Shown here: positions 1 through 46,902 of the stretch, piece by piece
Position numbering within the stretch: position 1 is the stretch's first letter
Layout: each line of letters opens with the position of its first letter
Assembly (NCBI GenBank): GCA_964575095.1
Contig: CAZNPA010000008.1
Coordinates: forward strand, 11,559 to 75,558
DNA from: an uncultured Rickettsiales bacterium
GTDB taxonomy: Bacteria > Pseudomonadota > Alphaproteobacteria > Rickettsiales > SXRF01
DNA: 64,000 bases
Reading direction: 5' to 3'
Notes under the pieces: model-generated
Seen by the model: the letters and a program-made list of their open reading frames with translations, nothing else
Databases searched by the model: none
Told to the model about the DNA's origin: nothing
Translations under genes and position numbers: made by a program

Positions 1-657
1 GTGAAACCCGTTCCGGCCGGGCACTGGCTGCGCGACACTCTCGTTGCGCCTTTCGCTGATTTTATGACCAACCGCCATTGGGTGCATCTCCTGCTCTTCA
101 TCATGCTCTATAAATTGGGCGATGCGTTTCTGGGCATCATGACCAATCCGTTCCTGCTCGAAATCGGTTTCACCAAAACCGACATCGCCACGGTGGTGAA
201 AGTCTATGGGCTGGCTGCAACATTGATCGGCGTGTTTTTGGGCGGCGTGATGACGCTGCGCCTCGGCACGGTAAGAACGCTCATGATATGCGGCATCGGC
301 CACGCGCTCACTAATTTGATGTTCCTGGTGCAGGCCAGGGCAGGGGCCGATATCCATATTCTGGCGCTGGGCATTTCCCTGGAAAATTTAAGCGGCGGCA
401 TGACGGCCTCGGCGTTCGTCGCCTTCATCAGCGGTCTCACCCATGCGCGCTACACCGCGACGCAATACGCGCTGCTGTCATCGCTCGCCGCCATGGGGCG
501 CACCTGGCTTACCACTACCGCCGGCTGGACCGCTGAGCGTTTCGGCTGGGAATGGTTTTTTATTATTTCCGTGCTGCTGGCCGTACCTGGCCTGGCGATT
601 TTGTGGTGGCTGCAGAAAGAATTTAAGGCCACTTCACCTCGGGCGGCAGAGACATAA
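1..657 (+). CDS. ampG: AmpG-family MFS muropeptide permease, C-terminal part (5' end lies outside the window)
   Basis: The frame is open from base 1 with no start codon. The TM-rich translation ([26 protein letters not shown] ... [16 protein letters not shown]) looks like the C-terminal half of AmpG/MFS permeases. It overlaps the convergent hemF stop by 35 bp. Confidence 0.7.
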
Positions 658-1588
658 GGATAGCCTCGGTATTGCCGCCGGTTTGCAGTCCGAATTTGGT
701 GCCACGGTCGTAGAGTAAATTGAATTCCACATAACGTCCGCGTTTTTTGAGCTGGTGCTCGCGTTGCTCCGACGTCCAGCTTTCATGCATATGGCGACGC
801 ACGAGCGCGGGATAAATATCGAGGAATGTTTTCCCGACGTCTTGCGTGAATTCAAAATCCTTCTGCCAATCGCCGGTGTTTACGTAATCGTAAAATATCC
901 CGCCGACGCCGCGCGGCTCGTTTCTATGCTTCAGGAAAAAATACTCATCGCACCATTTTTTAAATTTGGGGTAATAGTCGGGACTGTATCGATCGCAGAT
1001 TTTTTTGAACGCCGTATGGAAATCGGCAGTATCGGCATCATTCGGATACATCGGTGTAAGGTCAGATCCTCCTCCGAACCATTGTTTAGTAATGCTCCCG
1101 GAGTTTTCTGCTGAAAACTCCATGGAGCGCCGCTCAGGGCTGGCGCGGTCTGCTGACCGCGCTCCGCCGAGCACAATCATCCGCGTGTTCATATGTACCG
1201 CCGGCACCAATGGTGAACACATATGTGCCACCAAAGAAATGCCGCTGGCCCAGAATTGCGGATTCTCATTTGCGCCGGGAATTTCTTTTCGCATCGTCTC
1301 CGAGAATTCACCGTGCACTGTTGAGATATTGACGCCGACTTTCTCGAACACGCGCCCCTTCATCAACGACATCTCCCCACCGCCGCCTCCCTCACGGACC
1401 CATGGGGTTCGTATGAAGCTTCCTGGATCTGCGCGGTCAGCAGACCGCGCCAGCCCTGAGCCAGGTCCCATGGAGTTTTCAGCAGAAAACTCCGGGGACA
1501 TTTCTATTTTCTCAAACTCGGCGCAGACTTGATCGCGCAGTTTCCTAAACCAAGCGGCAGCTTCTTTCTTTTGCTCTTCGATGTTCAT
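623..1588 (-). CDS. hemF: Oxygen-dependent coproporphyrinogen III oxidase carrying two in-frame repeat insertions
   Basis: 321-aa ORF with HemF blocks [51 protein letters not shown] and [20 protein letters not shown]. Its start overlaps the trmL stop by 4 nt. Confidence 0.93.
1091..1162. repeat. Double-hairpin palindromic element, copy 1, inside hemF (MITE/RPE-like)
   Basis: GGAGTTTTC-TGCT-GAAAACTCC (1100-1121), a 21-nt spacer, then GCGCGGTC-TGCT-GACCGCGC (1143-1162). The flank AATGCTCCC is shared with copy 2. At 72 bp it equals 24 codons and is in frame. Confidence 0.85.
1431..1502. repeat. Double-hairpin palindromic element, copy 2, inverted relative to copy 1, inside hemF
   Basis: GCGCGGTC-AGCA-GACCGCGC (1431-1450), a spacer, then GGAGTTTTC-AGCA-GAAAACTCC (1472-1493). 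Its reverse complement matches copy 1 except for 5 mismatches in a 7-nt block of the spacer. Confidence 0.85.
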
Positions 1589-2022
1589 TGCGTTTGCCTT
1601 ATTGCTTCTCCCAGCACCATGCTCGCGGCCAGCGCTACATTAAGCGAGCGAGCGCCATTGTGCATGGGGATCTTTATCCGTATGTCTGCCGTATCATGCA
1701 CATACCCCGGCACGCCCGATGTTTCGCGGCCGAATAACAATATATCGTCTTTCCTGAATGTGCATTGCGTATAATTTGCTTCGGCGCGTGTGGATAATAA
1801 TATCAGTCTCCCTTGCTTCGCATCGAGAAATTTCTGCCACGAGCTGTGCCGCGTGATGCCTGCCAGATTATAATAATCGAGCGCGACGCGGCGCAGTTTC
1901 TTATCATCGAGCACAAACCCGCACGGTTCAATGATATGAAGAATAGCGCCCATGCAGGCCGAAAGCCGTATCATGCTTCCGGTGTTCTGCGGGATATCGG
2001 GCTCGAATAACGCAATTTGCAT
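1585..2022 (-). CDS. trmL: tRNA (cytidine/uridine-2'-O)-methyltransferase TrmL (SpoU family)
   Basis: [25 protein letters not shown]...HIIEP...LDYY is a typical TrmL/YibK N-terminus. I moved the start to the internal Met, though the ORF-track start at 2052 is also possible. Confidence 0.85.
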
Positions 2023-2128
2023 ATTTTTCAAATAGTTATAGCTGACGCACAAAATTCATAAAAAAGCGATATATGATGACGGTGATTTTTGGCACAATAG
2101 TCACAGTATTCAACTGCATTGTGACATT

Positions 2129-15115: not shown

Positions 15116-15709
15116 CTAATGCAGATTTCCTGGAAACGGAATGACGTTTTCCGGCGGCATGACGACTTTTTCGCCGCCGCCCAATAGCGGCCGGTAAAAT
15201 TCCATATCCCCACCGTTGATACGCTGAAGAAAATCGGCCAGGGTTTCCTGCACCCCCACTTCGGCGCGAAGATTATCGACATGATCGGGGTCTTCAAGTG
15301 GTTTAGGCACAAAGCAACCGTTGGTGACTTCGCGCACCTGCGTGCCGAAACGCTGATGGCGCTCGAGATTGCACAAAATACGGTCGGTAAGACAGGCAAG
15401 GTAGGAAAGCTTTAGGCGGCCTTGCTTGGCCAGCTGCAGCATGAGCTGATGGCATAGCATCTGGAACTCAGGATCGTAATCGGAATGCAGCACGACCAAA
15501 AACGACGCTTCTTCCATCTCCAGGTCGAATTTGGCAGCGCTCGGCCAGCCGTTTTCGGCAATGAAGGATTTCAGCGCCTCACTTTTCTTGCGGTGGATGC
15601 CCTCTAGAAAGCGCAGCGAGCTTAGGTTATAAGCCGGACTTACCCGCGGTGGCAATTCGGCAGCGGTTTTAAGGCTGAATAGATGACTAATGTGTGCGGC
15701 GTCGAGCAT
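15116..15709 (-). CDS. Hypothetical protein
   Basis: 197-aa ORF convergent with the previous one, carrying the motif LVVLHSDYDPEFQ...YLACLTDRILCNLERHQRFGTQ. I cannot assign a family without a search. Confidence 0.55.
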   Translation of the reverse strand: MLDAAHISHLFSLKTAAELPPRVSPAYNLSSLRFLEGIHRKKSEALKSFIAENGWPSAAKFDLEMEEASFLVVLHSDYDPEFQMLCHQLMLQLAKQGRLKLSYLACLTDRILCNLERHQRFGTQVREVTNGCFVPKPLEDPDHVDNLRAEVGVQETLADFLQRINGGDMEFYRPLLGGGEKVVMPPENVIPFPGNLH

Positions 15710-15800
15710 TTTTTGGTGTTTCTTTAGTTCATTATAGCGTAAATTTTACGGGCTGTCATCGCCGTAAAACCCTAAAAGCCGCAGTTTTTAAGGCTATTTC

Positions 15801-17057
15801 ATGATTGCTTGGACTAAACATCTTTATATTCAGGTTATTATCGCCATCGTTCTTGGGGTCGCTTTTGGCTGTATGATGCCGCACGAGGCGGCAGCGATGA
15901 AACCGCTGGCGGATGCGTTTATCAAGCTCATCAAAATGCTGATCGCTCCCATCGTCTTTTGCACGGTGGTAACGGGTATTGCCGGCATGAAGAATATGGC
16001 CACCGCCGGACGCATCGGCCTTAAGGCTATTATTTACTTCGAGGTGCTGACAACGCTGGCGCTGCTCATCGGGCTGGCCGTGGCGCACCTGCACCAGCCC
16101 GGACTCAACCTGCATATCGATATGAGGACGCTCGATGCCGGTAGCATGAAAGACTATACCGCAAAAGCTGCTGCAACCGGCTCCGGCGTAGATTTTTTTC
16201 TGCATCTCATCCCGACAACGATCGTCGACGCCTTCGCCAAGGGCGACATGCTGCAGGTTCTGCTGATATCCGTTCTCTTCGCACTGGCGTTGATGAGTCT
16301 GGGCGGGCGTGGCGAAGCGGTTCACAATTTTATCCACCAGCTTTCCGCCGTTTTATTCACGATGATGGGCTGGGTCGTGCGGCTGGCGCCCATCGGCGCC
16401 TTTGCCGCCATGGCCTTTGCCGTCGGGAAATACGGCGTCGATATATTGACGTCGCTGGCGGCGCTGATGCTGGATTTTTACCTGACCTGCATTGTATTCA
16501 TCGCCGTCGGTCTGGGCGGCGTCATGCGCCTGGCCGGGCTCAGGCTGTGGCCGTTCCTCAAATATATCAAAGAGGAAATCGTGCTGGTGCTCGGCACTTC
16601 ATCGTCGGAAGCGGCGCTGCCGCGCATGCTGGATAAAATGGCGAAACTCGGCTGCGCCAAACCAGTCGTCGATATGGTGATCCCGACCGGCTATTCGTTC
16701 AACTTGGACGGCACCTGCATTTACCTCACCATGGCTGCGCTCTTCGTCGCTCACGCCACCGGCACCGAACTGACCTTTGCCGACGAACTCACATTACTGG
16801 CCGTGTTGCTCTTAACCTCCAAGGGCGCGGCGGCGGTCACCGGCGGCGGGTTCATCGTGCTGGCGGGAACGCTTTCCGCCATCGGCCATATTCCGGTCGA
16901 AGGGCTGGCGCTTATTCTGGGCGTCGATCGCTTCATGTCGGAGGGGCGCGCCATCACCAACCTCATCGGCAACGGCGTCGCCACGCTCGTCGTTTCCAAA
17001 TGGGAGCGGGCGCTGGATATGAAAAAAGTAAAAGCGGGATTGGGAATTCGGGATTAG
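15801..17057 (+). CDS. dctA: C4-dicarboxylate transporter (dicarboxylate/amino acid:cation symporter)
   Basis: Typical DAACS/DctA sequence throughout (KMLIAPIVFCTVVTGIAGM, GTSSSEAALP, IPTGYSFNLDG, TSKGAAAVTGGGF). The last codons (GLGIRD-stop) lie in the heptamer palindrome. Confidence 0.93.
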   Translation: MIAWTKHLYIQVIIAIVLGVAFGCMMPHEAAAMKPLADAFIKLIKMLIAPIVFCTVVTGIAGMKNMATAGRIGLKAIIYFEVLTTLALLIGLAVAHLHQPGLNLHIDMRTLDAGSMKDYTAKAAATGSGVDFFLHLIPTTIVDAFAKGDMLQVLLISVLFALALMSLGGRGEAVHNFIHQLSAVLFTMMGWVVRLAPIGAFAAMAFAVGKYGVDILTSLAALMLDFYLTCIVFIAVGLGGVMRLAGLRLWPFLKYIKEEIVLVLGTSSSEAALPRMLDKMAKLGCAKPVVDMVIPTGYSFNLDGTCIYLTMAALFVAHATGTELTFADELTLLAVLLLTSKGAAAVTGGGFIVLAGTLSAIGHIPVEGLALILGVDRFMSEGRAITNLIGNGVATLVVSKWERALDMKKVKAGLGIRD

Positions 17058-17117
17058 GGATTAAGAATAGTGATTTCTTTTTTCCTAATTCCCAATCCCG
17101 AATTCCCAATCCCTAAC
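17036..17117. repeat. 82-bp palindrome built from GGGATTN heptamers (MITE-like; possible bidirectional terminator)
   Basis: Left arm GGGATTGGGAATTCGGGATTAGGGATTAAG, an A/T-rich ~22-nt centre, and right arm CCTAATTCCCAATCCCGAATTCCCAATCCC, which is nearly the exact reverse complement. It spans the overlapping stops of the convergent dctA and EamA genes. Confidence 0.85.
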
Positions 17118-17974
17118 TTTGCCTCACGGCGGGCGATATAAACCGTACTGATGACGATGAGAAGCGCGCCCATCAATGTCGAAACCGTGATCGTCTCCCC
17201 GAACATTATATAGGCAAGGATACCGGCAAAAATCAGCCGCGTGAAATCGAACGGCATCAGGACTACCATGTCGGCACGCATGAAGGCACGCGTCAGCGCC
17301 AGGTGCGCCAGGGTCGAAAGCAGGGCGATTAAAAACACCAGCCATAACTGATAGGGCGTAACATCGTGCCAGTAAACAATAGCGGGCGGCACCGACCACG
17401 GAATCATAAAGAGCGCCATATAAAAGACGATAGTCTCCGGCGGTTCGGTACGCGTCAGCGTTTTCACCAGCACACCGGCTACCGCCATCATCGCCGACGA
17501 CATCAGCACAAAACTGGCGGCCGGGCTGATGCCACCGATGTCCGGCCGCATGATCACCAGCATCCCGGTAAAACCCAGCACGATGGCGCCCCAGCGATGC
17601 AGGCCGGCTTTTTCGCGCAGGAACAGGATGGCAAAGATGGTGGAGAAAATGGGCGTCGTGAACGAGAGCGCCGTCGCCAGCGTGATCGGCATGATCGAGA
17701 GCGAATAAAACCACAGCTCCATCGACACCACCCCCACTGCCGCGCGCCAGAAATGGCTTTTAAGGCGTCGGGTCGGAAAACGCGGCGAGCGGCGCTGCAA
17801 CGCCGCCGCCCAGACGACGATAATCACGAGGCTCATGACGTTGCGTAAAAACACCATCTCGGCCGGGTGCATGGTAAAGGACAGCAACCGGACGACGCTG
17901 GTCATAGCGGCGAAAAGCGCCATGCTGGCCAACATCAGGCCCATGGCGACGATGGTTTTCGAGAATGTCGGCAT
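17054..17974 (-). CDS. EamA/DMT-family transporter
   Basis: 306 aa with about 10 TM segments and two EamA-like halves. The C-terminal ~20 aa (LGIGNSGLGIRKKEITILNP) are encoded by the heptamer palindrome. Confidence 0.85.
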   Translation of the reverse strand: MPTFSKTIVAMGLMLASMALFAAMTSVVRLLSFTMHPAEMVFLRNVMSLVIIVVWAAALQRRSPRFPTRRLKSHFWRAAVGVVSMELWFYSLSIMPITLATALSFTTPIFSTIFAILFLREKAGLHRWGAIVLGFTGMLVIMRPDIGGISPAASFVLMSSAMMAVAGVLVKTLTRTEPPETIVFYMALFMIPWSVPPAIVYWHDVTPYQLWLVFLIALLSTLAHLALTRAFMRADMVVLMPFDFTRLIFAGILAYIMFGETITVSTLMGALLIVISTVYIARREAKLGIGNSGLGIRKKEITILNP

Positions 17975-32392: not shown

Positions 32393-33754
32393 ATGACGTT
32401 CACCGTTGCTATTGTCGGCCGGCCCAATGTCGGTAAATCGACATTATTTAACCGCTTAACCGGCAAGCGCCGGGCACTGGTCGATGACGAGGCGGGGACG
32501 ACGCGCGACCGGCGCGAAGGCAAGGCCAAGCTGGGGCCGTTGGAATTTCGCATCATCGATACCGCCGGGCTGGAAGAGGCGAAAGCGGAGACTCTGGCAG
32601 CGCGCATGACCAGCCAGACCAAAGAAGCCCTCAAAGACGCCGACGTCGTGCTGATGATGATCGACGGCCGCGCCGGTGTGACGCCGATGGACCGGCACTT
32701 CGCCGAAATCGTGCGCCGTGCGCAAAAACCCGTGGTGCTGGCGGTCAACAAGGCCGAGGGCAAGGAATCGAAAAGCGCCATCGCCGAGGCGCACGCGCTG
32801 GGGCTCGGCGCGCCGGTGCCCATTTCCGCCGAGCATAACGAAGGCCTCGCGGATTTGTACGAGGCGCTGGCACCTTTTGAGAAAGGAAGTGGGGATTCGG
32901 GATTCGGGATTAAGGAAGAAGAAACAAATTTTATTCCCCCCAATCCCCCGCTTTCTATAGCCATCATCGGCCGGCCCAATGTCGGTAAATCGACGCTGAT
33001 GAACCGCATTTTAGGCGAGGAGCGGATGCTGACCGGCCCCGAGGCGGGTATCACGCGCGATGCGGTGATGGTGGAGCACGCATTCGAGGGGCGCCCTCTG
33101 GCGCTGGTCGATACCGCCGGGATGCGCCGCAAATCGAACGTGAAGGAAAAAGTCGAGAAATTGGCGGTCGCCGACGCGCTGGAGTCGCTCAAATACGCCG
33201 AGGTAGCGGTTCTGGTGATGGATGCCGAGATGCCGCTCGAAAAACAGGACAACGACATCGCGGCGCTGATCGAGCAGGAGGGTCGTGCTGTCGTCATCGC
33301 CGTCAATAAATGGGATATGGTCGAAGATGAGAAGGCGTTTCTTAAAGCCTTCCGCCAGCGGCTGGAATACGTGCTGCCGCAGGTGGCGGGTGTCGCCATC
33401 GTGCCGGTGTCGGCGGAGAAGGGGCAGGGCATCTCGAAGCTGCTCAAGGAATGCATCAAGGCGCATGCGGTGTGGAACAAGGAAATCTCGACCAGCCAGT
33501 TAAACCGCTGGCTGGAAGAGGCGCTTGCCGCCCACGCGCCGCCGCTGGTCAACAAGCGACGCGTCAAGATCCGCTACATGACGCAAAAAACGGCGCGGCC
33601 GCCGACGTTCATCTTATTCGCCAACACCGGCGACATTCCAGAGAGCTACATACGCTATCTGGTCAATTCCATGCGCGAGCACTTTCATTTGCCCGGCACG
33701 CCGATCCGCATTAAAATCCGCAAAGGGAATAATCCGTATGCCGGCCGCGATTGA
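32393..33754 (+). CDS. der: Ribosome-biogenesis GTPase Der (EngA), with a repeat-derived interdomain linker
   Basis: Two GTPase domains (GRPNVGKSTLFN and GRPNVGKSTLMN, each with DTAG and NK.D) and a KH-like C-terminus. Confidence 0.95.
   Translation: MTFTVAIVGRPNVGKSTLFNRLTGKRRALVDDEAGTTRDRREGKAKLGPLEFRIIDTAGLEEAKAETLAARMTSQTKEALKDADVVLMMIDGRAGVTPMDRHFAEIVRRAQKPVVLAVNKAEGKESKSAIAEAHALGLGAPVPISAEHNEGLADLYEALAPFEKGSGDSGFGIKEEETNFIPPNPPLSIAIIGRPNVGKSTLMNRILGEERMLTGPEAGITRDAVMVEHAFEGRPLALVDTAGMRRKSNVKEKVEKLAVADALESLKYAEVAVLVMDAEMPLEKQDNDIAALIEQEGRAVVIAVNKWDMVEDEKAFLKAFRQRLEYVLPQVAGVAIVPVSAEKGQGISKLLKECIKAHAVWNKEISTSQLNRWLEEALAAHAPPLVNKRRVKIRYMTQKTARPPTFILFANTGDIPESYIRYLVNSMREHFHLPGTPIRIKIRKGNNPYAGRD
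32891..32949. repeat. GGGATTN-heptamer element copy inside der
   Basis: GGGGATTCGGGATTCGGGATTAAGGAAGAAGAAACAAATTTTATTCCCCCCAATCCCCC. The left arm and A-rich centre match the 17036 palindrome, and the right arm is degenerate. It is translated as GDSGFGIKEEETNFIPPNPP. Confidence 0.75.
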
Positions 33755-42442: not shown

Positions 42443-42879
42443 AACGGCTTGAAAACGACCAGCAATACGATGCCGACCAGGAGCACGGCCGGCACTTCGT
42501 TGAAGAGGCGGAAAAACCTCTCGGATTTTTTATTTTCGCCGCGTGCGAAGGCCTTGCGGTAGCGCGACATCATGGCGTGGGCGACCTGCATCGCCATCAC
42601 CAACCCCAGCTTGGCATGCAGCCAGCCGCCGTTGGCGGGGTCGAAGGCGTTGACAGTAAAGGCCAGCCACAGCCCCAATATCCAGGTCGCGATCATCGCC
42701 GGATTGATGATGAGGCGAAGGAGCTTCTTCTCCATTTCCTGAAACATCTTATCGGTCTCGCTGCCGACAGCCACGCGCGTGTGATACACAAACAGCCGCG
42801 GCAGGTAGAGCATCCCCGCCATCCAGGAAATCACGGCGATGAGATGCAGGGCTTTCAGCCAGTGGTAGGTCAGATCCAT
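42439..42879 (-). CDS. hemJ: Protoporphyrinogen IX oxidase HemJ
   Basis: WLKALHLIAVISWMAGMLYLPRLFVYH is the HemJ (UPF0093/CopD-like) signature; about 146 aa with 4 TM segments. I set the start at the internal Met, which overlaps the hemH stop. Confidence 0.85.
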   Translation of the reverse strand: MDLTYHWLKALHLIAVISWMAGMLYLPRLFVYHTRVAVGSETDKMFQEMEKKLLRLIINPAMIATWILGLWLAFTVNAFDPANGGWLHAKLGLVMAMQVAHAMMSRYRKAFARGENKKSERFFRLFNEVPAVLLVGIVLLVVFKPF

Positions 42880-43913
42880 TGTTCTTCCTCGCGCAGGCAG
42901 GCGCATTTTTCAAAATTGCGCGGGCAGAGTATGCCACCGGTCGAGGAATGGGTGCCCTCTTCCTTGCCGACGGTCGTGCATAGGTTGGCCAGCGCCTCAA
43001 TGAAAAGCGGGTCGGCGGAAAGCGTCGGCACACGCCAGTAACCACTTACACCCTGTGCGTCGGCCAATTGGCGGTACTCGATATCAAGCTCGACCAGCGT
43101 CTCCGAATGTTCGGAAACAAAACTGACCGGAACAACCACTACCGGAACTTTGTCCTGACCGGCGCGCAAGATTTCCTCTTCGGCCGAAGGCGCGAGCCAC
43201 TCAAGCGGGCCGACGCGGCTCTGGTAACAGACGGTGTAATCCAGCGCATCAATCGCCAGCACTTTGACGATGGCGGCCACCGTTTCTTTTATCTGCCACG
43301 GATAGGGATCGCCGTCGTTGGCGATGCGCTCGGGCAGACCGTGCGCGGTGAAGAGCACGCGCGGCTTTCCGGCTTCGGACGCTTTCCAATACACGTCTTT
43401 TATCAATCGGGCGTGCGCGGCGATGAAATGATTATCGGTGGGATAGCAGCAAATTTTTGTGACGGGCGCCGTAAGCCCGGCGCCTTTGGCCGAAACATCC
43501 CAGGCATCGAAAGAAGAGGCGGTGGTGGTGGTGGAAAATTGCGGATAGAGCGGCAGCAGAATCACACGGTCAGGCGCGTAGGCATTGACGTTTTTGGCGA
43601 CGATATCGCTCATCGGGTTCCAGTAGCGCATGGACACGAACACTTTGTGCTCGCCTTTTTCCTTTAGCATTTCTTCCAGTGCTTTTGCCTGTGCCTGTGT
43701 TCCCTCCAGTATCGGCGATCGGCCGCCGATCTGCTGATAAATGGCGCGCGCCTTGGGCGCGCGAGCGCGGGCGATGACCCATGCCAGCGGCTTTCTTAAG
43801 AACGCCGGCAGGCGGATAATCGCCGGGTCGCTAAAAAGATTATTGAGGAACGGCCGAACGGCTTCCAGATTATCCGGCCCCCCGAGATTAAATAAAACGA
43901 CAGCTGTTTTCAT
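42870..43913 (-). CDS. hemH: Ferrochelatase with a C-terminal Cys-X6-Cys-X-Cys motif
   Basis: VVLFNLGGPD, LPLYPQFS, FTAHGLP and SFVSEHSETL motifs. ATGA-type overlap with hemE. Confidence 0.93.
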   Translation of the reverse strand: MKTAVVLFNLGGPDNLEAVRPFLNNLFSDPAIIRLPAFLRKPLAWVIARARAPKARAIYQQIGGRSPILEGTQAQAKALEEMLKEKGEHKVFVSMRYWNPMSDIVAKNVNAYAPDRVILLPLYPQFSTTTTASSFDAWDVSAKGAGLTAPVTKICCYPTDNHFIAAHARLIKDVYWKASEAGKPRVLFTAHGLPERIANDGDPYPWQIKETVAAIVKVLAIDALDYTVCYQSRVGPLEWLAPSAEEEILRAGQDKVPVVVVPVSFVSEHSETLVELDIEYRQLADAQGVSGYWRVPTLSADPLFIEALANLCTTVGKEEGTHSSTGGILCPRNFEKCACLREEEQWI

Positions 43914-45263: not shown

Positions 45264-46088
45264 ATGAAAAAATTCAGCCTGCATCTGGTGTCCGATTCGA
45301 CGGGAGAAACCGTAGGCGGGGTGGCGAGAGCGGCGCTGGCGCAATTCGATAACATCGAACCGGAAGAATTCACCTGGACGCTGGTAAGAAGTGACGCGCA
45401 AATCGAAAGGGTCATCGACGGCATTCGCCAGAATCCGGGCGTGGTTATGTATACGCTGGTCGATAACGCCCTGCGCGACAAACTTAAAATGGAATGTGCG
45501 CGGCGCGGCCTGCCGTGCATTGCCGTGATCGCCAACGTCGTCAACGAGCTTTCCTCCTATCTCGGTCAGGAGACGCACGCGTTGCCCGGGAAACAGCATG
45601 CGCTTGACGAAGAATATTTCCTGCGCGTCGACGCCGTCAATTACGCGTTGGCGCACGATGACGGCCAGGCGCACTGGGAGCTGGGCGACGCCGACATCGT
45701 GCTGGTCGGCGTGTCGCGCACGTCCAAATCCCCCACCTGCATGTATCTGGCTTATAAGGGCTACAAAACGGCCAACGTGCCGTTCGTGCTCGATTGCCCG
45801 TTGCCGACAACGCTGACGGAAATCAAAAAACCGCTGATCGTCGGGCTTATCATCGGCACCGACCGGCTGCAGCAGATACGGAAAACGCGGCTGCAATCGC
45901 TCAACACCGAAAAAGACACCAACTATGTCGATCCCGATCAGCTGCAGCGAGAGATCGCCGAATCGCGCAAGCTGTTCAACCAGCATAAATGGCCGGTGAT
46001 CGACGTTACCAAGCGCTCGGTCGAAGAAACGGCGGCGACGATCCTGCAGCATCTCAAAAAACACCAGGATAAGCAGGATGGCGCCTAA
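45264..46088 (+). CDS. Pyruvate, phosphate dikinase / PEP synthase regulatory protein (DUF299, PDRP/PpsR family)
   Basis: LHLVSDSTGET N-terminus and the P-loop-like VGVSRTSKSPT; 274 aa. Confidence 0.88.
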   Translation: MKKFSLHLVSDSTGETVGGVARAALAQFDNIEPEEFTWTLVRSDAQIERVIDGIRQNPGVVMYTLVDNALRDKLKMECARRGLPCIAVIANVVNELSSYLGQETHALPGKQHALDEEYFLRVDAVNYALAHDDGQAHWELGDADIVLVGVSRTSKSPTCMYLAYKGYKTANVPFVLDCPLPTTLTEIKKPLIVGLIIGTDRLQQIRKTRLQSLNTEKDTNYVDPDQLQREIAESRKLFNQHKWPVIDVTKRSVEETAATILQHLKKHQDKQDGA

Positions 46089-46902
46089 AGCCGGGATCAT
46101 CGGCTGGCCGGTAGCGCACAGCCTGTCGCCCAGACTGCACCGCTATTGGCTGGATGCGTATAACATTCCCGGCGAATATGTAATGCTGCCGGCCGAGCCG
46201 AAAGATCTGGCAAAAACCATGGCGTCATTACCGACGCAGGGCTTTTGCGGTGCCAATATCACCGTGCCGCATAAAGAAACGGTGATGAAGCTGTTGGATG
46301 AGACGGATGAAACCGCGCGCGCCATCGGCGCCGTCAATACGGTCATTATCAAAGGCGGAACATTGCGAGGCACCAATACCGATGCGTATGGTTTTGTCGA
46401 AAGTTTGCGGCAGGGCGGCGGGCTTGGCGTCAGGGGCAAGGCGGTGGTGCTGGGCGCGGGCGGTGCTGCGAAGGCCGTATGCAAGGCGCTTAGCGACGAG
46501 AATTTCTCCGGCGTTATCGTTGTATGCCGGTCGCCGGAAAAGGGATTCGGGATTCGTGATTCAGGATTCGGTAAGAAGAAAAATATAGCAATTAAAGCAT
46601 GGGAAGAGCGCAATACCGTTCTTGCCGGCGCCGATTTGCTGGTAAACGCCACCAGTCTGGGCATGCAGGGCAAAGAGGCGTTGGATATAGATTTAGCATT
46701 ATTGCCGACATCGGCGACGGTGATGGATCTGGTCTATGCGCCGCTTATCACGCCGCTCCTGGTGCAGGCGCAAAAGCGCGGCCATAATGTCATCGACGGG
46801 TTGAATATGCTGATTCATCAGGCAGTGCCGGCGTTCGAGGCGTGGTTCGGAGTGCGGCCGCAGGCGGATAAAGAAACAAGGGAACATTTGCTCCATGGGT
46901 AA
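46078..46902 (+). CDS. aroE: Shikimate dehydrogenase, with a repeat-derived segment after the NADP-binding glycine loop
   Basis: GIIGWPVAHSLSPRLH, NITVPHKE, GAVNT, LGAGGAAKA and NATSLGM motifs over 274 aa. Confidence 0.9.
   Translation: MAPKAGIIGWPVAHSLSPRLHRYWLDAYNIPGEYVMLPAEPKDLAKTMASLPTQGFCGANITVPHKETVMKLLDETDETARAIGAVNTVIIKGGTLRGTNTDAYGFVESLRQGGGLGVRGKAVVLGAGGAAKAVCKALSDENFSGVIVVCRSPEKGFGIRDSGFGKKKNIAIKAWEERNTVLAGADLLVNATSLGMQGKEALDIDLALLPTSATVMDLVYAPLITPLLVQAQKRGHNVIDGLNMLIHQAVPAFEAWFGVRPQADKETREHLLHG
46542..46590. repeat. GGGATTN-heptamer element copy inside aroE
   Basis: GGGATTC GGGATTC GTGATTC AGGATTC GGTAAGAAGAAAAATATAGC. Four heptamers plus an A-rich tail like the other copies, translated as GFGIRDSGFGKKKNIA. 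Confidence 0.75.

Follow-up and report, generated by a model that had tools for sequence, protein, structure and literature searches.

Two inverted copies of a double-hairpin repeat, probably a small palindromic element, inserted in frame in hemF of an uncultured Rickettsiales bacterium

We analysed 64,000 nucleotides of a genome assembly of an uncultured Rickettsiales bacterium (GCA_964575095.1, contig CAZNPA010000008.1, positions 11,559 to 75,558; here called the window). Within it the essential haem-biosynthesis gene hemF, which encodes oxygen-dependent coproporphyrinogen III oxidase, carries two extra segments that fold into the same pair of hairpins and lie in opposite orientations. Both segments are real insertions in HemF, and they are probably two copies of a non-autonomous repeat element, small and palindromic, that inserted into the gene in frame. 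Related copies are found at the same places in hemF of other genomes, and in other genes.

Architecture of the element

The hemF open reading frame (ORF) lies at 623..1588 on the minus strand and encodes 321 amino acids (ORF list; Pfam PF01218, E = 1.1e-95). An alignment with homologues finds all invariant HemF residues present in the window protein. Both copies of the element are inside this ORF and the reading frame runs intact through each of them, as had been claimed in an earlier note made from the sequence alone. The copy at the position we term site 2 has a 69-nt core at 1094..1162 on the plus strand, antisense to hemF (residues 143–165), and scores 100.2 bits with R1, a covariance model of length 88 nt built from 18 aligned copies of the family. 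The copy at site 1 has its 69-nt core at 1431..1499 on the minus strand, in the same sense as hemF (residues roughly 31–53; 99.5 bits). At site 2 the inserted sequence spans precisely 23 codons (1094–1162). Similarity between the copies runs past the cores, to 1087 at site 2 and to 1506 at site 1, and an inverted-repeat search returns one pair, with arms of 76 nt at 1087–1162 and 1431–1506 that are 89% complementary and stand 268 nt apart.

Each copy is composed of two unlike hairpins. In the site-2 copy (copy 1) the extended hairpin 1 occupies 1094..1128 on the plus strand, with an outer stem (1094–1098 paired with 1124–1128) and an inner 9-bp stem (1100–1108 paired with 1113–1121) closed by a TGCT loop at 1109–1112; the inner stem-loop, 1100–1121, reads GGAGTTTTC-TGCT-GAAAACTCC. 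Hairpin 2, at 1143..1162 on the plus strand, has an 8-bp G+C-rich stem and the same loop, and reads GCGCGGTC-TGCT-GACCGCGC, so that on one strand the loop of either hairpin is C-TGCT-G. In the site-1 copy (copy 2), on the minus strand, hairpin 2 is at 1431..1450 as the reverse complement of its counterpart, and extended hairpin 1 is at 1465..1499 (inner stem-loop 1472–1493, outer stem 1465–1469 paired with 1495–1499). The hairpins of the two copies are identical, and the differences between the copies are confined to a 5-nt patch of the spacer and 2 flank bases.

Direct reading and the inverted-repeat search thus bear out the earlier note on the positions of the hairpins and on copy 2 as the reverse complement of copy 1, and its five differing positions in one short spacer block and its shared flank AATG(C/T)(T/C)CCC are also present. 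Two of its boundaries require revision. The repeat does extend beyond the hairpins, but the unit shared by the family is the 69-nt core of 23 codons and not 72 bp of 24 codons; and the stem-loop at 1100–1121 given there as hairpin 1 exists but is too short, as it omits the covarying outer stem GCTCC/GGAGC. Across the family the unit comprises a long hairpin, a conserved spacer of ~20 nt and a short G+C-rich hairpin. Some relatives have an element that is longer at both ends, with fuller copies of about 85–90 nt.

In dinucleotide-shuffled versions of the window neither hairpin turns up (expected matches 0.00 and 0.05), and the two 86-nt segments each have a folding z-score of about −6. Hairpins are not generally abundant in the window, which has 15 perfect ones against 2–14 in shuffles, 4 of the 15 being those of hemF. 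A pattern search, an iterated nhmmer profile and the covariance model with filters off all failed to detect a third copy in the 64 kb, in agreement with the earlier reading.

Four of the six frames are free of stop codons in each copy. As each hairpin reads the same on its reverse complement, the mirrored frames of the hairpins yield the same peptides whichever way the element is turned; the orientation-neutral coding noticed earlier is therefore real and a consequence of palindromy. An antisense ORF of 175 amino acids that passes through both copies (1005..1532, plus strand) is a by-product of these mirrored open frames, and we found no evidence for its being a gene.

The segments are insertions in HemF

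The window protein was compared with homologues in an alignment of 32 HemF sequences and in a census of 120 HemF clusters (P0001–P0120). In many relatives both sites are occupied by short native linkers, with site 2 reading VVG-D/E-x-x-K-Q; among these relatives are P0029, P0049 and P0062, which are 77–82% identical to the window protein. At the nucleotide level, codon alignment of related loci (L numbers) finds site 2 empty in L005 and site 1 empty in L007, L009 and L013, and the site-1 insertion of the window is also present in L005/P0003 and in P0017. The solved oxidases of bacteria, yeast, Leishmania and human have neither segment, and alignments to them break at site 2. These comparisons confirm that the two segments are insertions, and that they are specific to a lineage, as had been proposed.

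An AlphaFold2 (AF2) model built from the homologue alignment matches the solved oxidases over the rest of the protein (template modelling score 0.70–0.77). In the model the site-1 insert (residues 30–52) is coil following helix 3–29, with predicted local distance difference test (pLDDT) values of 48–67, and the site-2 insert (residues 141–167) is a loop between strands 130–140 and 168–177, with pLDDT 35–45. The segments are accordingly modelled where the earlier note had looked for them, in loops, here of low confidence, and they are predicted to be disordered. P0040, P0092 and P0021 retain decayed remnants of the element; copies are thus able to degrade, and the element is dispensable.

Copies in other genes and genomes

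We searched ~320 kb of DNA from relatives, taken from around nine HemF and two Der homologues, using an iterated nhmmer profile and the covariance model. Site 2 of hemF is filled in 8 genomes, in a single orientation throughout, and site 1 in 6 genomes, in both orientations. A third site in hemF is filled in L016, and L011 has an intergenic copy in the spacer between hemF and a SpoU-family gene. The site-1 copy of L012 is read in a different (third) frame and specifies an unrelated peptide. A shortened copy lies in an oppD-like ABC ATPase gene (L013 5344–5431, 47 bits), the product of which has 18 extra residues relative to the L014 orthologue. An exact hairpin-1 scan of one genome per species gave a single match to the element, in frame in hisF of a metagenome-assembled 'Rickettsiales bacterium', and a metagenome scan added a second assembly with the same hisF insertion; the hisF copies, L001 and L003, score 101 and 99 bits. 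Two other exact hairpin-1 pattern matches, L002 and L004, were set aside as unrelated lone hairpins. The host ORFs are intact for the insertions in hemF, hisF and the ABC ATPase gene, and 17 of the 18 aligned copies are intragenic. The earlier expectation that a repeat of this type would recur in related genomes is thus borne out by the copies in hisF, the ABC ATPase gene, the third hemF site and the spacer upstream of hemF.

In the window and in L016, genome-specific stem variants are common to two copies of the same genome. A subfamily represented by L015 10144–10239 and by HemF of P0014, P0025, P0031 and P0067 has a hairpin 1 stem that is wholly different in sequence yet perfectly paired (CGCGAAAATC/GATTTTCGCG). 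We had considered the peptide of this group as a separate family, and rejected that assignment in favour of a subfamily of the same element.

Searches of wider collections were negative. Der homologues have uniform lengths and no double-hairpin insert; a broader spacer pattern gave no match in viral contigs, and blastn gave none in plasmids. A 52-residue concatenation of both peptide orientations returned 6 candidates from a database of 5.8 billion proteins, none of them scoring. A phmmer search with the 32-residue window peptide against 50%-identity representatives, a clustering that hides insert-bearing members and so limits this negative, gave two chance matches only, to the repeat proteins P0121 and P0122.

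Conservation of structure and sequence

Across the 18 aligned copies, 89.5% of cells form standard pairs compared with 72% in shuffles, and 13 of the 17 stem pairs have double-sided changes. The covariation score is 0.445, compared with 0.118 in shuffles (reached by 0 of 500) and no more than 0.08 when the partners are slid. By stem, covariation is seen in 8 of 9 inner and 4 of 5 outer pairs of hairpin 1, and double-sided changes in 5 of 8 pairs of hairpin 2. RNAalifold recovers the hairpin-1 stems, including a covarying outer stem that brings hairpin 1 to 14 bp, and 6 of the 8 hairpin-2 pairs. Most copies have a tandem mismatch in hairpin 2, with a perfect stem in the window copies. Both hairpins are therefore maintained by compensatory changes, with the loops and spacer conserved in sequence.

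Conservation was measured as mean pairwise identity among the 8 genomes that have a site-2 copy. Four-fold degenerate sites of the flanking hemF sequence are 44% identical, compared with 79% for the whole element (76% in stems and 86% at non-stem positions); because copies are recognised by similarity, the figures for the element are biased upward. By codon position the identities within the element are 76%, 79% and 83% for positions 1, 2 and 3, respectively. Peptide selection would produce the reverse of this ranking, in which third positions come out best conserved, and the pattern points either to DNA- or RNA-level constraint in place or to recurrent renewal, by re-insertion or conversion, from conserved master copies. 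Element identity tracks host identity weakly (Mantel r = 0.45, P = 0.03 with amino-acid identity; r = 0.28, P = 0.2 with four-fold sites). Mutation through hairpin-templated correction, a process established for imperfect palindromes, could generate paired changes in the stems with no selection; it does not account for the conservation of loops and spacer.

Origin and maintenance of the element

Several observations make it probable that the hemF segments are in-frame insertions of a palindromic element, small and non-autonomous, among them that sites are filled or empty among orthologues, that the same element occurs in unrelated genes, and that both orientations as well as a third frame are used. 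Copies of the family would have entered hemF at permissive surface loops, and would have persisted there by virtue of a length that is a multiple of three, four stop-free frames out of six and 23 extra residues placed in disordered loops outside the enzyme core. By analogy to REP elements (repetitive extragenic palindromes) and the ends of IS200/IS605 elements, mobilisation may depend on a trans-acting enzyme that recognises folded DNA or RNA. Recognition as folded nucleic acid would explain why stems are kept by compensation and the loops and spacer in sequence. We infer that the element is mobile and selfish in nature and that a mobilising enzyme is involved; the inserts are presumably translated and neutral for the enzyme. 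A general tolerance of short palindromic in-frame insertions in this lineage is evident from other palindromic families, which lie in frame in the window genes der and aroE as well as in the HemF and Der proteins of relatives.

Several results weigh against a mobile element. Terminal inverted repeats are absent, a GTAG/CGTC tag is found at no consistent place in the 18 copies, codon alignment of filled and empty junctions reveals no evident direct repeat of the kind left by target-site duplication, and there is no transposase gene among the called genes of the fetched loci. The exact 22-mer of hairpin 1 is very rare in genome and metagenome collections. Density is low, with only the two hemF copies in 64 kb of the window and one further copy, a degenerate one, in ~270 kb of non-hemF DNA of relatives. 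Profiles of the peptide in its two orientations match 22 of the 120 HemF clusters and none among 120 Der clusters (Fisher P = 2e-7), a bias towards hemF that a randomly inserting element does not predict. The single orientation at site 2, together with conservation far above that of neutral sites in hemF, would also fit selection in place over mobility. Likely candidate contributors to the hemF bias are loops that are very permissive, local copying after an old insertion, and resident palindromes that attract new elements; REPs are known targets of insertion sequences (PMC1525189).

The conservation at nucleotide level and the hemF bias are the parts that we did not expect, and they keep alive the idea, doubtful in our judgement, that the double hairpin is a structured nucleic-acid module actively maintained inside coding sequence across family-level divergence. 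This could possibly come about through a homing-type element that repeatedly targets the same hemF loops, or possibly through a cis-acting RNA or DNA signal, composed of two stems capped by C-UGCU-G / C-AGCA-G and the conserved spacer, that is under purifying selection while the peptide is free to drift. We consider it slightly less probable than this, and so unlikely, that the hairpins are a functional RNA or DNA structure kept in place by selection after an old insertion at site 2 and vertical inheritance, for example as a protein-binding, processing or stability signal of the hemF transcript or as a site acting at the DNA level. Such a function would be in keeping with the one orientation of the site-2 copies in 8 genomes, with the excess of element over four-fold identity (79% against 44%, with 86% at non-stem positions and a maximum of 83% at third codon positions), with stems that change only by compensation, and with the strong association with hemF and modest correlation between element and host identity (r = 0.45, P = 0.03). 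It is difficult to square with the presence of the same element in hisF and the ABC ATPase gene, and with the use of both orientations at site 1, as a result of which the mRNA would show complementary loops. Moreover, the equivalent position in many close relatives is empty, or is occupied by decayed remnants or by palindromic families unrelated to this one, Rfam has no match, and picking copies by similarity has inflated the apparent conservation. Less probable again is a single insertion, with a second copy that arose within hemF by inverted duplication or was overwritten through gene conversion between the inverted repeats, the stems then being kept by quasipalindrome correction during replication and not by selection. 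The window copies have identical hairpins and differ in only the 5-nt patch and 2 flank bases; at site 2 the window copy has the GCGCGGTC/GACCGCGC stem in its perfect form, which is characteristic of copies at site 1 (window, L005), with a tandem mismatch instead in seven other site-2 copies; the nearest relatives, P0003 and P0022, have no site-2 insert; and templated correction is well established. Yet site 2 is filled in many genomes that have no inverted copy at site 1, and a local event of this kind leaves unexplained the copies in hisF and the ABC ATPase gene, as templated correction leaves unexplained the conserved loops and spacer.

It is very improbable that HemF possesses the extra segments as an ancestral or adaptive feature, selected as peptides. 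The peptides do recur at the same loops in the 22 HemF clusters, but the codon-position pattern and the copies in other genes already contradict this reading: conservation is highest at third positions, the peptides drift whereas the stems remain paired, and one copy is read in another frame to give an unrelated peptide. The segments are also missing from the solved oxidases and many close relatives, and are predicted to be disordered. Least credible of all is an assembly artefact of this contig. Inverted repeats can mislead assemblers and the window is known from its assembly alone, but the frame is intact through both copies and the same insertions occupy the same sites in independent assemblies of different sources (L005/L006, L007/L008, L009/L010), so the artefact that the earlier note had allowed for is not borne out for this class of insertion. 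Readings as an integron attC-like site or a regulator box were dropped, as the stems vary in sequence and inverse-core motifs are absent.

Host gene and genomic setting

A gene for a SpoU-family RNA methyltransferase lies at 1585..2052 on the minus strand (ORF list). Its stop codon overlaps the start of hemF, making it likely that the two genes are co-transcribed, and the same gene order is found in the relatives L005, L009, L011, L012 and L015. The neighbour on the stop side of hemF is a truncated MFS transporter gene, and cytochrome bc1 genes are located further along on the strand opposite to hemF and the SpoU-family gene. A ferrochelatase gene with a hemH-like N terminus (MKTAVVLFNLGGPD) is at 42870–43913 on the minus strand, about 41 kb from hemF; a covariance-model match at 43739–43841 (13.7 bits) is native ferrochelatase sequence and was rejected as a copy of the element. 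Rfam detects nothing at gathering thresholds in the whole 64-kb window, tRNA included.

The G+C content of the window ranges over ~52–61% and is roughly 57% overall, which does not support the roughly 60% G+C genome of the earlier note. The host lineage of the element family is uncultured and alphaproteobacterial, with the public labels 'Rickettsiales' or 'Alphaproteobacteria bacterium', and contigs of related genomes carry polyhydroxyalkanoate (PHA) synthase and flagellar genes. In L009 an otherwise syntenic hemF neighbourhood is interrupted by genes for a DNA cytosine methyltransferase and an NgoBV-type restriction enzyme (15544–17559). A HipA-like kinase gene adjoins hemF in L012, and HicAB does so in L007.

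Other palindromic repeats nearby

A second repeat family in the window is characterized by the heptamer GGGATTC, a pattern with 13 matches against 2.6 expected. It includes a 78-nt palindrome at 17036–17113 (arms 17036–17067 and 17082–17113, 91% complementary) between the convergent genes of a dicarboxylate symporter (15801..17057, plus strand) and an EamA transporter (17054..17974, minus strand). The palindrome encodes the C-terminal residues and stop codons of both genes and, given this placement at both gene ends, probably acts as a bidirectional terminator. Members of the family are also present in frame in der (32393..33754, plus strand), where 32885–32950 falls in the linker between the two GTPase domains (GSGDSGFGIKEEETNFIPPNPP), and in the shikimate dehydrogenase gene aroE (46078..46902, plus strand), where 46542–46573 specifies GFGIRDSGFG. 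Some Der relatives have similar linkers (P0124, P0136), and most have acidic ones.

HemF loops of the relatives hold still other inserts. At hemF site 2 of P0009 (L013 10457–10500) a heptamer-family element, NKNPESRILNPES, is directly beside a double-hairpin element, and P0016, P0021 and P0018 have other combinations of inserts and remnants at the hemF loop, which suggests that resident palindromes attract further insertions. In the 120 clusters, three HemF loops contain short inserts, apparently palindromic, that belong to at least five families with no relation to one another, for example WRNEE..SSIPQFPNSSIP, SPHPHIPTSPHP, CEPEGERAISPQ..CERQQTR and PHPNPLPERERES..SPFQGEGRDEG. HemF ranges in length from 271 to 392 residues in the clade, and Der of the same kind of genomes from 441 to 465 residues.

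Discussion

Palindromes that insert in frame into protein-coding genes were first described as a peculiarity of Rickettsia, and scattered intragenic REP dimers have been reported elsewhere. Here the same behaviour is seen in a different, uncultured and moderately G+C-rich alphaproteobacterial lineage, with a much shorter element. The presence of copies at the same loops in many genomes provides a comparative series with which to separate peptide selection, selection or mechanism acting at the level of the hairpin, and repeated insertion; the codon-position pattern excludes the first of these forces. If either route to a maintained module were true, the element would be one of the rare examples in which a strong constraint at the nucleotide level prevails over the codon structure of a housekeeping gene.

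The series also identifies the HemF loops after residue 29 and between strands 130–140 and 168–177 as permissive insertion sites. Inserts of this type inflate protein lengths and confuse annotation and alignment, and covariance model R1 can be used for a census of the element in metagenome-assembled genomes.

Comparison with known systems

The closest behavioural parallel drawn in the earlier note was with the Rickettsia palindromic elements (RPEs; RPE-1 to RPE-10). This holds for in-frame insertion: RPEs too are palindromic repeats found in frame in conserved housekeeping genes of an alphaproteobacterium, add a peptide at loops compatible with the fold, have extragenic copies as well and decay with time (PMC2229807, PMC10969869). 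The parallel does not extend to architecture, and the terms 'selfish' and 'mobile' go no further than inference. RPEs are 105–146 bp in length and form one long stem closed by terminal inverted repeats (PMC2229807), whereas the element described here has a 69-nt core with two local hairpins and ends that share no more than 5 nt of complementarity, a contrast drawn by architecture and description. RPE hosts are A+T-rich Rickettsia with dozens of copies per genome, in contrast to the ~57% G+C and low, hemF-centred density seen here.

Intragenic REP dimers, which are BIME-like doublets, encode 20–30 amino acids, and some ORFs have two such inserts, as in Opitutus terrae and R. conorii (PMC3733652). 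Like these dimers, the present element consists of two short stem-loops (35 and 20 nt, compared with REP palindromes of 20–40 bp) and a conserved spacer (REP spacing is 20–100 bp), and its structure is kept while stem sequences vary. It differs in that the conserved GTAG/CGTC tetranucleotide that marks one foot of REP palindromes, or its complement, occurs at no consistent place in the 18 copies, and in that the hairpins are unrelated in stem sequence and are arranged head-to-tail. REPs are mainly extragenic, lying downstream of genes, and of high copy number, whereas 17 of the 18 copies here are intragenic and no high copy number was seen. A cognate RAYT gene (Y1 transposase) with repeats on its flanks accompanies REPs; the called genes of the loci fetched here include no transposase.

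PARCEL sequences are likewise dyad-symmetric coding DNA in which both strands encode similar peptides (PMC2996958); they occur in accessory surface proteins, as an amphipathic domain of 25 residues repeated in tandem, and so differ from single insertions into housekeeping enzymes. Enterobacterial and neisserial MITEs (miniature transposable elements with inverted repeats) that contain open frames, such as ERIC, YPAL and the 107-bp Correia element, are bounded by terminal inverted repeats, duplicate a TA target and form a single long stem-loop, features that are not seen here. The ends of IS200/IS605 elements resemble the present element in having different subterminal hairpins at the two ends with neither terminal inverted repeats nor target duplication, although the gene-less derivatives of IS200/IS605, known as palindrome-associated transposable elements, are typically much longer. 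The flanks of the element are A/T-rich (TTTAAA, TTTGAA), with no fixed target tetranucleotide established. IS200/IS605 elements are recognised as folded single-stranded DNA, and recognition of this kind would explain covarying stems alongside conserved loops and spacer. The double hairpins in hemF probably belong to a new family of palindromic elements, small in size and inserting in frame, of a known kind in their behaviour and set apart by their architecture.

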